A stretch of DNA of 64,000 nucleotides, from IMG/VR virus record IMGVR_UViG_2724679236_000008; one strand, written 5' to 3'. The notes beneath the pieces are model-generated. The model did no database searches. It had not been told where the DNA came from and saw nothing but the letters and a program-made list of their open reading frames with translations. The position numbers and the translations under genes are program-made. Origin of the DNA: a virus. Its lineage: Duplodnaviria > Heunggongvirae > Uroviricota > Caudoviricetes. Shown piece after piece: positions 39,665-43,276 of this stretch (the stretch's first letter is position 1; each line of letters starts with the position of its first letter).

Positions 39665-39688
39665 AAAGCTCCTTCGGGAGCTTTTTTT
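39665..39688 (+). terminator. rho-independent terminator
   Basis: aaagctccttcgggagcttt followed by ttttt. Confidence 0.7.
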
Positions 39689-39816
39689 ATAACTATTTTA
39701 TATAAAAATGCATCGATAACATTGTCTGGAGTTTTATGTTAGATTATTAATGTTCTAATAAACTACAATTATTGAGGTAGATGTTTGTGCCTGTACTGTT
39801 AAAGGGGGACTCTAAA

Positions 39817-40413
39817 ATGGCTGTGATTCCAATGTCGTACTCCCCGGGCACTGTCGCTCGTCGATTTTCGATCCTGGACGGTGTAATCATCCAGGGTGTG
39901 CTTTACCAGATTATATGGGATTCCAAAACCCCATTTGCAGCCGTAATAGAAGCAGCGCCTTCTGTTATCGATGGTGATATGCGCCATAAGGTTGTCGCTA
40001 CTCTTGAACTTCAACGTCGCCCGCAGCTTGAAGGCGTACTGGTAAGGAAGTTCTGGGAGGATAGCGATGTTGCCCAGATTGAAGGTATCGTGGTTGATGG
40101 AACCGTCCGGGATGTCGGTTTAGCTACTTTTGTTTACGAAACCGTAGCCTCAAAAGCTGGTGTTGTTTTGCTCAGTGATAATGAGCAATACGAAGGTGGA
40201 AAAGCTCTTTGGCAACACATCGCCCGTCGCTCTTCCGAGCTAAAAGTGTTTATCCTCGACACCGATGCCGCTCAGTATTACCCGTTTGACGGCGAACGTG
40301 TTTGCTATGACGGGGTAAGTATTCCTGAATCCGAGATATGGAGTGAACACCCAGATCGAAGTAAGCATGGGGTTGTTCTGGTTGCTGAATCCATAACTGG
40401 AAAGGCGGCATAG
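39817..40413 (+). CDS. hypothetical protein, 198 aa
   Basis: ATG at 39817 after AAGGGGGA; track ORF starts 12 codons upstream. Confidence 0.5.
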   Translation: MAVIPMSYSPGTVARRFSILDGVIIQGVLYQIIWDSKTPFAAVIEAAPSVIDGDMRHKVVATLELQRRPQLEGVLVRKFWEDSDVAQIEGIVVDGTVRDVGLATFVYETVASKAGVVLLSDNEQYEGGKALWQHIARRSSELKVFILDTDAAQYYPFDGERVCYDGVSIPESEIWSEHPDRSKHGVVLVAESITGKAA

Positions 40414-40595
40414 CAGTAAAAAATTCCTTGCTCCTTGACAGAGGAGAGGATTAATCTAAGTACGCTAAGCATAGGTATGGCCCCGGTTAATGTTAAGCGT
40501 TGTGCGGGACGCATAATGTTTACTGGGGCTTTCTTCTATCTGCTTTTCGGGTAATACCTGAAGCTGATAGCCTCAAGCACACCGCAGCGGGTGTA

Positions 40596-40859
40596 TCAAT
40601 GTCTGGTTTTTTTTCTATAGAAATCACCTGGAAGGGTGAATATCCACATCAGAAGAAATGTTGCAGCAAACATGATCCCTAATGGCCAGAATATGCCAAA
40701 AAAAATCATTATCCAAAAACGATCCCACCAGGCCATTTCTGCATTAGCTCGCAAAATATATCGACTTAATGCGTATATCAGTCCACCAATTAGTATATAG
40801 ATGGGAATAGATACCAGGATAGTCATAGCGTTAGTCTCAATGAACATAACGAATATCAC
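40596..40859 (-). CDS. small integral membrane protein, 87 aa
   Basis: Three hydrophobic segments. Confidence 0.5.
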   Translation of the reverse strand: MIFVMFIETNAMTILVSIPIYILIGGLIYALSRYILRANAEMAWWDRFWIMIFFGIFWPLGIMFAATFLLMWIFTLPGDFYRKKTRH

Positions 40860-40906
40860 CAGAGCAAAGTATAAATCCCTCTGCGTAGGGCAGAGGGACT
40901 AAATAG

Positions 40907-41422
40907 TTAAAATCGGTAACCGACACCAAGCATCCAAATGCTATTGCTTAGATCACCTGGTTTAGAACGTTCATACGAGAGATCAACTGCAAACTGCGGA
41001 GCTGGGTTAAATTGAAGCCCAAGTCCATAAGCAAAATCGGTTCCAAAGCCAGCATATGACTGTCCATTCAGTTTTGCTGTTGCATCCGCATGGCTTAAAC
41101 CCACCAAGCCGTATGCACTCATTAATTCATTGAATCTGTATGACGGACCAAAAGTAAATGAGGCATACTCAACCTTGGCTTTGGCGGCATTCCATAGGTT
41201 TGTGTTTGACTTTTCGTAAGTGACCGAAGCTAATCCACCCCACGTAGAATCCATTTCGTAGCGATATTTAATATTCACGCCTTTTGGATCTTTTATATCT
41301 CCGCCTTTAACCGTTGCGCTTCCTTGGGCAAAGTCTAAGGAGAGTGTGTGCTGATATGCGGAGGCAGTCCCAGCAACCCCCAAGGCACATGCCAGAAGGG
41401 CCGTTAAAACTACTTTTTTCAT
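40907..41422 (-). CDS. Ail/Lom/OmpX-family outer-membrane beta-barrel protein, 171 aa
   Basis: Signal peptide MKKVVLTALLACALGVAGTASA; alternating beta-strand pattern; C-terminal GVGYRF. Confidence 0.8.
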   Translation of the reverse strand: MKKVVLTALLACALGVAGTASAYQHTLSLDFAQGSATVKGGDIKDPKGVNIKYRYEMDSTWGGLASVTYEKSNTNLWNAAKAKVEYASFTFGPSYRFNELMSAYGLVGLSHADATAKLNGQSYAGFGTDFAYGLGLQFNPAPQFAVDLSYERSKPGDLSNSIWMLGVGYRF

Positions 41423-41517
41423 GGAAAAAGTTACCTATAAAAACGTTAAAAATAATACTGGTGACAAAATAGTGTGTATTGAGCGTTAAATACACGTAAA
41501 GATTCTATCATTCGCGA

Positions 41518-42360
41518 TCATCCGCGAAAACCAGTTGGAATATAAAATTCCTTTTCTTTTCTTGTAGATAGGACCATATCCAGAGCTTCGTTTACCGTCA
41601 TGCAATGCGGCAGATTATCGAAGTTTGATATCCCGCCCATATCAGGAGAACGCTTGTTCTTCAGGTAAGCATATTTCCGCGCTGCCGCCTCTACTTTCTG
41701 CTTGAACTCATGTTTTTGAGAGCGTTTTTTGGATAACCGCAGATTGTCAGCCTTTGCTTTTGCCTCAGCGATCCATGAAGTCAATTTTTTGAGTCTGGTC
41801 GTTCCGGCACCGCCGGAAACTGATCTTTTTGTTTTTTTAATTTGTGACTTCTTATTCTTTATTGCCACGTCATCCTGACAGGGGGAGGGGCTATCATTTT
41901 GACATGGGGATGTGGATAAAAAATCGAATAAAGCCAATGTCTTAGCGAGAACAGCTTTAACCTTGGTTGCGGCTGAAGAGATCTTCAATTTGCTTTCAAT
42001 TAGCGCATTTTTGGCTTGTTGAGCAAAGGCTAAAAAGGATGGTGTAAACCGGTACAGGTTAGCGCGGCGTTCACGGTGATCGCCGATAACAATCTCTACC
42101 GACAGGATTCCTTTGTTTACAGCTTCACGGAATGCGCGAACGACGGTTGATTGGCTATAACCAGTTTCTGCCGCGATCATGCGGTGAGGCTTGTGAATGA
42201 AGTATTCACTGGTTGTTGCCGCGAGATTTGCACATTGCGACAGGATATGCCCGGCGCTACGGGATAGACCGGAGTGTGTTACAAAGCAGGCCAATTCATA
42301 GCCAGAAAAAGTAAAATCGCTCATCGTTATACAGCTCAGGAAAGTGACTTTAGCCAGCAT
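41518..42360 (-). CDS. repL: lytic replication protein RepL-like, up to 280 aa
   Basis: Directly downstream of kilA as in the P1 lytic replicon; probable true start at internal MSDFTF. Confidence 0.6.
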   Translation of the reverse strand: MLAKVTFLSCITMSDFTFSGYELACFVTHSGLSRSAGHILSQCANLAATTSEYFIHKPHRMIAAETGYSQSTVVRAFREAVNKGILSVEIVIGDHRERRANLYRFTPSFLAFAQQAKNALIESKLKISSAATKVKAVLAKTLALFDFLSTSPCQNDSPSPCQDDVAIKNKKSQIKKTKRSVSGGAGTTRLKKLTSWIAEAKAKADNLRLSKKRSQKHEFKQKVEAAARKYAYLKNKRSPDMGGISNFDNLPHCMTVNEALDMVLSTRKEKEFYIPTGFRG

Positions 42361-42389: not shown

Positions 42390-43190
42390 TTAGCGCGTTG
42401 CCGCGACAGGTACCAGCACACCAGCATCAAGCAATCGCTTCATCAGCCACTGCTGACCTTTGCCGGTTATACGAGTCGTGAAAGAAATCCTGCTTCCATT
42501 GCTTGTATCGATCACGGTTTCTTTGAGGGTGAAGTACCCACGGGATATGTATTCTTGTTTGGGGACGTTCCTGCGTTCACCAGTTGCGATCAGAATTCCG
42601 TTATCACGCAACCAGGTGAAGAGATAGTTTTGGCCCAGGCCGAGAACTTTGGCATAGTTGCCGATTAGAACCCCGCTGGCGGTAGCAACGCGTTCGGCGA
42701 ATTCGACTTTAGGTGCATCCATAAGCATTTTTTGCTCCAGCCGTTGCTTTTGCTCTGCCAGGTCGGCAGCCAAACGGAGAGCTTCAGGGAGACTCTGCGG
42801 AATAGCAGGTTGTAATCTTCCGGCTCGATAGTCGATAAATGTCTGGTTTACCTTCAGCCGAAACGCGGGAGAAATCCAGCCTGCGTACTCCACAGCGAGC
42901 AATTCATGGGCAAAAGTGCCGCCGCCACGGCCCTCGAACGAAACTATGCAATTCTGCATAGTTTCTTTTTCAAGCTCTTCAATGAGCTGTTTGGCTGATT
43001 GCGTTCTTAGCCATTGAGCTGGCGCTTTATGGGCACCGAGTCCGCTCGCTCTGTGTAGAGCATTAAGGTTGTAACGGCCAGCGCGGTCGGTCGTAATTTC
43101 AACACCACAAATAACAGGTAGAGTGGTTGAAGGATCGACATTTTGATGAAGGTTTGATATATTCATATCCGCATTGAATGTTTGTTGCAT
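42390..43190 (-). CDS. kilA: KilA-N domain protein with antirepressor-type C-terminal domain, 266 aa
   Basis: C-terminal PQSLPEALRLAADLAEQKQRLEQ...GVLIGNYAKVLGL shared with the ant-like protein; C1 operator 70 bp upstream. Confidence 0.7.
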   Translation of the reverse strand: MQQTFNADMNISNLHQNVDPSTTLPVICGVEITTDRAGRYNLNALHRASGLGAHKAPAQWLRTQSAKQLIEELEKETMQNCIVSFEGRGGGTFAHELLAVEYAGWISPAFRLKVNQTFIDYRAGRLQPAIPQSLPEALRLAADLAEQKQRLEQKMLMDAPKVEFAERVATASGVLIGNYAKVLGLGQNYLFTWLRDNGILIATGERRNVPKQEYISRGYFTLKETVIDTSNGSRISFTTRITGKGQQWLMKRLLDAGVLVPVAATR

Positions 43191-43259: not shown

Positions 43260-43276
43260 AAATTTATTAGAGCAAA
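43260..43276. promoter_or_regulatory. C1-operator 17-mer (16/17) upstream of kilA-repL (Op53-like)
   Basis: aaatttattagagcaaa. Confidence 0.6.

Follow-up and report, generated by a model that had tools for sequence, protein, structure and literature searches.

The closest described relatives of the gene analyzed here are eight-stranded outer-membrane β-barrels of the Ail/OmpX/Lom family. Yersinia Ail provides serum resistance by binding vitronectin and C4BP. Ail expressed in E. coli suffices for serum resistance; in Yersinia pestis Ail, residues F54, F68, S102 and F104 are critical for vitronectin binding and serum resistance, and basic clusters comprising R14, K16, K139 and K144, and R27, R51, H95, K69, K97 and K99, underlie its recognition of lipopolysaccharide (LPS) (bioRxiv 10.1101/2020.09.23.310672). 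Related proteins include E. coli OmpX, Rck (resistance to complement killing), PagC, and Lom of phage lambda and the Stx phages. In this work we analyzed a 64,000-nucleotide stretch of viral DNA (IMG/VR record IMGVR_UViG_2724679236_000008; hereafter “the window”), which is an SJ46-type P1-like phage-plasmid, and found that it carries a distinct, uncharacterized sub-lineage of the Ail/Lom family, encoded by a gene that we call ail. An original prediction, made from the sequence alone, had placed an Ail/Lom-type barrel with its own signal peptide next to a small membrane protein in this region, both inserted between the tail module and repL, and had read the barrel as a lysogenic-conversion gene (“moron”) of a class associated with serum resistance or adhesion. 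Our data bear out the two genes and the barrel, and show ail to be accessory cargo that may alter the surface of the carrier cell; they change the picture of how the gene arrived and how it may be transcribed.

Two minus-strand open reading frames (ORFs) fill window positions 40596-41422 exactly; the small ORF’s stop codon marks one end and the ATG of ail (40907..41422, minus strand, 171 amino acids) the other. The assignment of the larger ORF rests on the ORF list, Pfam and Protein Data Bank (PDB) matches, an AlphaFold2 model and a Foldseek search. Its product scores well above the gathering cut-offs of both Pfam families named in the original prediction, PF13505 (E = 2.7e-24; 86.7 bits against a cut-off of 28.7) and PF06316, Ail_Lom (E = 1.3e-22; 81 bits against 23), and matches PHROG 108, “Lom outer membrane protein” (E = 2e-47). 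Among PDB entries Y. pestis Ail matches best (E = 2e-29), followed by OmpX (E = 5e-21) and Lom (E = 1.5e-13). Because of the matches to PF13505, PF06316, PHROG 108 and Ail in the PDB, the gene is not a chance ORF. The Lom entry, PDB 9wso chain C, is a solved “Outer membrane protein lom” of 206 residues; a literature search found no accompanying paper, and the entry’s remaining chains might reveal a binding partner of Lom.

The N-terminus of the ail product reads as a standard Sec signal peptide of the signal peptidase I type. Residues 1-22 (nt 41357-41422), MKKVVLTALLACALGVAGTASA, consist of MKK, 15 hydrophobic residues and ASA before the predicted cleavage site, after which the mature protein would begin with YQ. 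In line with this boundary, the alignment to mature Ail begins at residue 26, and the AlphaFold2 model shows a low-confidence helix at residues 2-19 with the barrel starting at residue 24. A lipoprotein reading of the motif LLAC was ruled out, as Cys12 is replaced by valine in three of eight relatives. The mature barrel of 149 residues ends in GVGYRF, which by sequence is a typical outer-membrane β-signal, with the C-terminal aromatic residue for the β-barrel assembly machinery (BAM); across 31 homologues G166, G168, Y169 and F171 are invariant and R170 nearly so. The AlphaFold2 model built from these 31 homologues (predicted local distance difference test score 87.3; predicted template modeling (TM) score 0.79) has eight long strands and a 3-residue strand segment in loop 1. 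Foldseek placed it closest to Y. pestis Ail (3QRA; TM-score 0.90, 41% identity), with E. coli OmpX also recovered (1QJ9; TM-score 0.89). We therefore regard the assignment as an Ail/OmpX/Lom-type eight-stranded barrel as nearly certain.

Y. pestis Ail (3QRA, 3QRC and 2N2L) is the best match in both sequence and structure, with 41-42% identity over 146-149 residues. The two proteins share the eight-stranded barrel, the conserved transmembrane core and the C-terminal GYRF, but in the window protein extracellular loop 2 is four residues shorter and loops 1 and 3 are each one residue shorter, and ail is borne on a phage-plasmid while the Y. pestis gene is chromosomal. E. coli OmpX (1QJ8 and 1QJ9) is 35-39% identical and has a precursor of the same length (171 residues), with a mature form of 148 residues; relative to it, the window gene is an extra, plasmid-borne copy beside the host’s own ompX. 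Lom of lambda and Stx phages shares the Pfam family and PHROG 108, is likewise a prophage-borne accessory barrel, and, like ail, may owe its transcription to read-through from a lytic operon. Its identity to the window protein is only 28-32%, however, and Lom is about 35 residues longer, chiefly in the loops. The lom gene is also placed differently, being found between the tail genes J and stf in the orientation of the late genes, while ail follows the lytic replicon of a myovirus phage-plasmid.

In this SJ46-type element, ail is non-essential cargo of variable region 5, which corresponds to the rlfA-rlfB-pmgF slot and is one of eight hyper-variable regions of P1-like phage-plasmids (PMC9603915). 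For its function we propose a reading that rests on analogy to Ail, Rck, PagC and Lom. The 171-residue product would be exported by Sec, assembled by BAM as an eight-stranded outer-membrane β-barrel, and would change the carrier-cell surface through its four extracellular loops, as those proteins do. Its most likely effect would be protection from complement or other host factors, or adhesion, and would benefit the lysogen in animals, mainly birds and livestock; its ligands would differ from those of Ail. We give this reading a probability of roughly 0.45.

Several observations, in the protein and in the sequences around its gene, weigh against this reading. In a HMMER alignment the four Ail residues F54, F68, S102 and F104 correspond in the window protein to a deletion, V84, K117 and N119. 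Serum resistance and adhesion, which the original prediction had associated with barrels of this type, cannot be transferred from Ail, and since the loops differ, neither can the Ail ligands. Only four of the ten basic residues of the LPS-recognition clusters are kept (K47, K71, H111 and K154), the others being S, T, S, E, D and T. The loops are short, and the mature protein, at 149 residues, is of OmpX size. It is nonetheless not an OmpX orthologue, since it scores 117.2 bits, below the equivalog cut-off of 176 for NCBIfam NF006917; orthology to Rck was rejected as well (79.7 bits against an equivalog cut-off of 258 for NF011777).

On the side of transcription, ail lies on the same strand as the kilA-repL genes to its right, 95 nt downstream of repL. 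We assigned repL (41518-42360, minus strand) and kilA (42390-43190, minus strand) by 95-97% identity to P1 and RCS47, the P1 annotation, and Pfam KilA-N and ANT domains. The opposite orientation to the flanking late genes that the original prediction described is thus found for the late genes on the left, but not for kilA-repL on the right. In P1, the kilA-repL operon is lytic and repressed by C1. The window contains ten matches to the C1 operator, against 0.28 expected by chance, and one of these, OrepL, lies upstream of kilA (43260-43276, one mismatch). No C1 operator was found within three mismatches between repL and ail or adjoining ail, where the nearest is OrepL itself. A search for the sigma-70 consensus returned three matches in the scanned region against 2.8 expected, none of them in the spacer; the sole 9-of-12 match upstream of ail falls inside the 3′ end of repL. 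The best candidate promoter in the spacer matches at 8 of 12 positions, and its −10 element is lost in two of seven relatives. With LP23 of P1 as template, we found no match to a P1 late (Lpa) promoter upstream of ail, and the pattern overall occurs at chance level. Finally, a function in the phage cycle would fit equally well with the place of ail downstream of the lytic replicon.

The signals at the two ends of ail differ. The spacer from the repL stop codon to the ail ATG (41423..41517, minus strand, 95 nt), examined by sequence, folding and alignment, is AT-rich; it carries deletions of 10 nt and 3 nt in two of seven relatives, and provides ail with a weak ribosome-binding site, AGGT, 10 nt upstream. 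No terminator-grade hairpin separates repL from ail, the spacer folding no better than shuffled sequence (z = −0.54). With no strong hairpin there is nothing obvious to stop kilA-repL transcripts, and read-through in the lytic cycle is therefore no less plausible than separate expression of ail in lysogens. Downstream of ail, in contrast to the spacer, the terminator scan and folding identified a terminator-like hairpin (40874..40900, minus strand) with an 11-bp stem and a 5-nt loop, followed by AUUUAUACUUUG. It starts 7 nt after the ail stop codon, is GC-rich and has a predicted free energy of −18.5 kcal/mol (z = −5.25), with none of 200 shuffled sequences as stable. The stem is kept in eight loci, with either CCTAC or CCGGC as the loop; the U-tract that follows is interrupted. 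We conclude that transcription probably runs on from the lytic replicon operon into ail and ends at a terminator belonging to ail itself, so that the gene would be transcribed from kilA-repL on induction. For ail to be expressed in lysogens, a weak promoter would have to lie either in the 95-nt spacer or in the repL 3′ end.

This arrangement bears on a different role, in which the barrel blocks phage adsorption and so acts in superinfection exclusion or defence. Read-through from the C1-controlled kilA-repL operon after induction, possibly with low-level expression in lysogens, would hinder access of P1-type phages, or of other phages that bind LPS or outer-membrane proteins, to their receptors, and would thereby keep progeny from adsorbing wastefully to infected cells, or protect lysogens from competing phages. 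Metagenomic eight-stranded barrels of the OmpX family block adsorption of T7, expressed lambda Lom defends strongly against lambda-vir, and Lom expression climbs sharply late in infection, where it was proposed to prevent wasteful adsorption (bioRxiv 10.1101/2025.02.28.640651). The co-orientation of ail with repL at a distance of 95 nt with no strong hairpin between them, the strong hairpin that closes the unit after ail, and the placement of the corresponding P1 slot under the C1 operator Orlf are all consistent with such a role. In the same study, however, OmpX, the protein closest in size to the window barrel, had no defence phenotype, and the Lom result comes from plasmid expression only (bioRxiv 10.1101/2025.02.28.640651). 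The ail product is only about 30% identical to Lom, and PADLOC returned no match for any of the three ORFs tested. We consider an adsorption block a minority possibility, though the foremost of the alternatives. Its more specific form, in which the barrel is switched on together with the lytic replicon to shield LPS or outer-membrane receptors, so that P1-type progeny or competitors would fail to adsorb to lysogens or to cells committed to lysis, as the P1-lineage counterpart of Lom defence, again by analogy, appears to us unlikely; such a blocker might work together with the neighboring P1-specific inner-membrane protein described below.

The same position could also be taken to indicate a function in the phage cycle itself, either replication-linked, like that of the rlf genes, or as a component of the virion or of lysis. 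Only position speaks for this, ail lying downstream of repL in the “replication-linked function” slot. P1, P7, RCS47 and hundreds of P1-like plasmids lack ail, no plausible part in DNA replication can be assigned to a secreted barrel of the outer membrane, and the rlf genes are themselves variable and dispensable (PMC9603915). From the absence of the gene in functional P1 we infer that ail is not an essential virion component, and we regard a function of this kind as highly improbable.

The distribution of ail is that of an accessory gene. It occurs in 36 of 72,556 PLSDB plasmids, 24 of them from Escherichia albertii (mostly from wild birds), seven from E. coli and five from Salmonella, and in nine of 5,426 complete E. 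coli genomes; the 36 plasmids are among 511 plasmid records that match the flanking sequence. All but one of the 36 plasmids are of P1-like size (82-146 kb), and the loci we inspected are P1-like; the exception is a 168-kb IncF plasmid. P1-like plasmids have been reported in 41% of UK E. albertii isolates, in association with avian clusters (bioRxiv 10.1101/2025.09.12.675607). In a search of 5.8 billion proteins, close copies of the ail product formed one cluster at ≥90% identity, and the nearest other proteins were Ail/Lom proteins of Arsenophonus and Photorhabdus at no more than 46% identity; among GTDB species representatives, relatives reached at most 42%. With no relative above 46% identity, the donor of ail is unsampled.

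That all copies form a single cluster of at least 90% identity and are tied to one backbone segment would also be expected of a hitch-hiker, an OmpX-like cargo gene with no specific selected role other than as a generic envelope component, which was acquired once by recombination at a hot spot and spread with a successful E. albertii plasmid lineage. The lack of an evident promoter and the nature of the slot, a recombination hot spot with varied cargo (rlfAB, rapA, IS605 orfB and hokD), fit this view too. Against it, no disrupted ORF was seen among the copies examined, one of which lies in a P1 fragment flanked by insertion sequences (ISs) on an IncF plasmid, non-synonymous change is depleted, and the hairpin stem is conserved. 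At the eight loci aligned (94.8-100% nucleotide identity) ail is intact in all, and 22 codons vary only synonymously against 15 with non-synonymous changes, which are mostly conservative and of which four lie in the signal peptide. These codon counts indicate purifying selection on ail, with an omega of roughly 0.2-0.25, and we judge neutral hitch-hiking improbable.

The IncF copy lies on NZ_OZ039654.1, a 168-kb conjugative plasmid of E. coli, where a short P1 fragment at 88.8-92.9 kb with an intact ail is placed between a DDE transposase gene and ISEc31. This copy has 94.8% nucleotide identity and 13 amino-acid changes, and shows that ail has also moved outside the phage-plasmid backbone. A further copy lies in the chromosome of E. 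coli sequence type ST2747 (NZ_CP007393.1, ~2.21-2.24 Mb), within a P1-like segment that holds a repB-type replication gene, parAB, sheath and tube genes, ail, repL, kilA, ant and icd, and that abuts a truncated lambdoid gpJ gene and a second Lom gene (199 amino acids). This arrangement reflects either integration into the chromosome, recombination between a phage-plasmid and a lambdoid prophage, or mis-assembly.

Comparison with canonical P1 and with the published account of its variable regions (PMC9603915) delimits the slot to 39688..41547, a region that replaces pmgF, rlfB and rlfA. Homology to the P1 backbone ends at 39687/39688, immediately past bplB, and is regained at 41547/41548, ten codons short of the repL stop codon. 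To its left the plus strand carries the sheath gene, tube gene 21, pmgG and bplB; to its right the minus strand carries repL, kilA, ant1/2, icd and the C4 RNA. The P1 slot has the same bplB-repL boundaries and encodes the DUF3800 protein RlfA, RlfB and PmgF under the C1 operator Orlf, and the window slot is unrelated to it in content, with a 210-aa ORF, a hok/sok remnant, the small membrane protein gene and ail. In RCS47 the slot holds the same 210-aa plus-strand ORF followed by an IS605-family orfB; in MH422554 and a Salmonella pond plasmid it holds a hok/sok locus; in P7 it holds rapA, and hokD is a further item of the varied cargo. P1, P7, RCS47, MH422554 and other P1-like phages do not have ail at this position.

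Within the slot, pairwise BLAST comparisons of the window with P1, RCS47 and MH422554 delimit a segment specific to the SJ46 type (40708..41547). It runs from a variant 3′ end of repL (the final ten codons) through the spacer, ail and the hairpin into the small ORF, of which it takes in the N-terminal half, 47 codons. Plasmids in PLSDB carry this segment complete (36 records) or not at all. Insertion of ail by a transposon or integrase was rejected, as we found no IS, no integrase and no meaningful flanking direct or inverted repeats. Because of this, and because both break-points lie inside genes of both element types, the ail module most likely moves by homologous recombination, judging from the sequence. 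Base composition does not set the gene apart (GC content 0.43-0.47 across ail, 0.39-0.53 in the flanks). Taken as a lysogenic-conversion moron, ail is thus accessory in its presence and absence and has its own hairpin, but matches to a promoter of its own are at chance level and its composition is not distinct.

The small gene beside ail (40596..40847, minus strand, 83 amino acids), identified from the ORF list, PHROG 3772 and hydropathy, does not share its history. An alternative GTG start at 40859 would give 87 residues (ORF 40596-40859), but translation more likely begins at the ATG at 40847, since a GGTGA Shine-Dalgarno sequence lies 8-12 nt upstream, RefSeq uses this start in SJ46, and it is conserved in all eight relatives. 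By hydropathy the protein consists of a first transmembrane segment (approximately residues 9-28), a polar loop (29-43), a hydrophobic stretch with WPLG (44-72) and a basic tail; by the positive-inside rule both termini would probably face the cytoplasm (N-in/C-in). PHROG 3772, of unknown function, matches it with E = 5e-42, and Pfam, NCBIfam and PADLOC gave no qualifying match (the one NCBIfam hit, at 16.5 bits, stayed below its cut-off of 42). When 1.84 billion representative proteins were searched exhaustively with a profile, nine were recovered, all of the P1-like family, and no homologue outside P1-like elements. The ORF is intact in all eight ail-carrying relatives, which have two different but equally basic tails. 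We conclude from these comparisons that the gene appears to encode a real, lineage-restricted inner-membrane protein.

The original prediction had this protein inserted together with ail, which its relatives contradict. The C-terminal half (IFFG..WPLGIMFAATFLLMWIFTLPGDFYR and the basic tail) and the DNA downstream share 90-96% identity with several hundred P1-like plasmids that lack ail. In such elements a second allele, for example P0039 (81 amino acids, 396 member sequences), stands immediately behind repL and an Orlf-type operator; although the N-terminal half of this allele has diverged strongly, it retains Y..IG...Y..S and the same layout, including a 29-residue hydrophobic stretch. Since its C-terminal half and the downstream DNA are backbone and occur without ail, the small protein did not arrive with ail in one insertion, and the ancestral position of its gene is directly behind repL and Orlf.

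A trace of this older junction may survive. By comparison with the P1 Orlf sequence and an alignment with MH422554, window positions 40852..40868 (minus strand) hold a remnant similar to Orlf, a C1 operator of P1 (TTTGCTCTGGTGATATT). The remnant overlaps the ribosome-binding site of the small ORF and has six mismatches to the consensus, and was hence missed by the operator search; the core ATTGCTCT is kept in five of eight relatives. That it functions as an operator is doubtful, although it might retain weak C1 binding. Following the ail hairpin, positions 40852-40881 (minus strand) read CAGAGGG-N8-TTTGCTCT, mirroring the end of repL and Orlf in ail-less elements, CAGAGGGTGATAGATTGCTCT. These short matches suggest an insertion of ail between repL and the former junction of Orlf with the small gene, of which the remnant is a possible scar.

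The remainder of the slot holds two further features. The 210-aa ORF (39781-40413, plus strand; 198 aa in the Prokaryotic Genome Annotation Pipeline (PGAP)), common to the window and RCS47, replaces P1 pmgF or the hok gene of relatives; it matches PHROG 7522, of unknown function (E = 4e-146), and no Pfam, NCBIfam or PADLOC entry, and is a second uncharacterized cargo gene of the variable region. Between it and the small ORF, Rfam RF01794 detects a decayed hok/sok toxin-antitoxin leader (40409..40582, minus strand; 65 bits, gathering score 59), which starts 14 nt after the small-ORF stop codon and is followed by no hok ORF. In relatives with an intact hokD or mokW the match reaches 114.9 bits and stops at the hok ATG, and the decayed version of RCS47 scores 68.5 bits. 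The window copy therefore looks like an orphan, degenerating toxin-antitoxin leader, and its presence explains a conserved block at 40452-40707.

As for the element as a whole, the locus matches E. albertii plasmid pEA4_97 (IncY, 97 kb) at 100% identity and Salmonella phage SJ46 at 97.2%; these two are likewise P1-like phage-plasmids. The immunity region is that of standard P1, with the C4 antisense RNA at 44653-44858 (minus strand; RF01695, 70.8 bits) and its a1/b1 targets (RF03163, 56.2 bits); an overlapping isrK match fell below threshold. The gene itself has been annotated before. PGAP records in RefSeq (WP_059242027.1, E. albertii pEA4_97) name it an Ail/Lom family outer membrane beta-barrel protein, and SJ46 gp018 (YP_009293475.1), whose protein is 99.4% identical to the window copy, is named “Lom outer membrane protein” with the note “RepL” still attached. 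In the original SJ46 GenBank entry (KU760857.1, 14323-14835) the ail ORF is labeled “replication protein”, which looks like an annotation slip carried over from the adjoining repL. The RefSeq name is correct. These RefSeq and SJ46 labels are automatic annotations, and the literature we searched yielded no functional or other study of the gene, whether in SJ46, in P1-like plasmids or in E. albertii.

In its outline the finding is ordinary: a cargo gene of the Ail/Lom family, annotated beforehand, at a recognized hot spot of an already described phage-plasmid family, and either a host-directed or a phage-directed role would be an incremental addition to a well-known class. If the barrel blocks adsorption, it would provide a second, independent case for Lom-type barrels as superinfection-exclusion devices. 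If its effect is serum resistance or adhesion, a surface virulence trait would be travelling on a transmissible phage-plasmid; besides E. albertii, the ail-carrying type is found in Salmonella and E. coli of livestock and human origin, in some cases together with extended-spectrum β-lactamase genes, as in SJ46.

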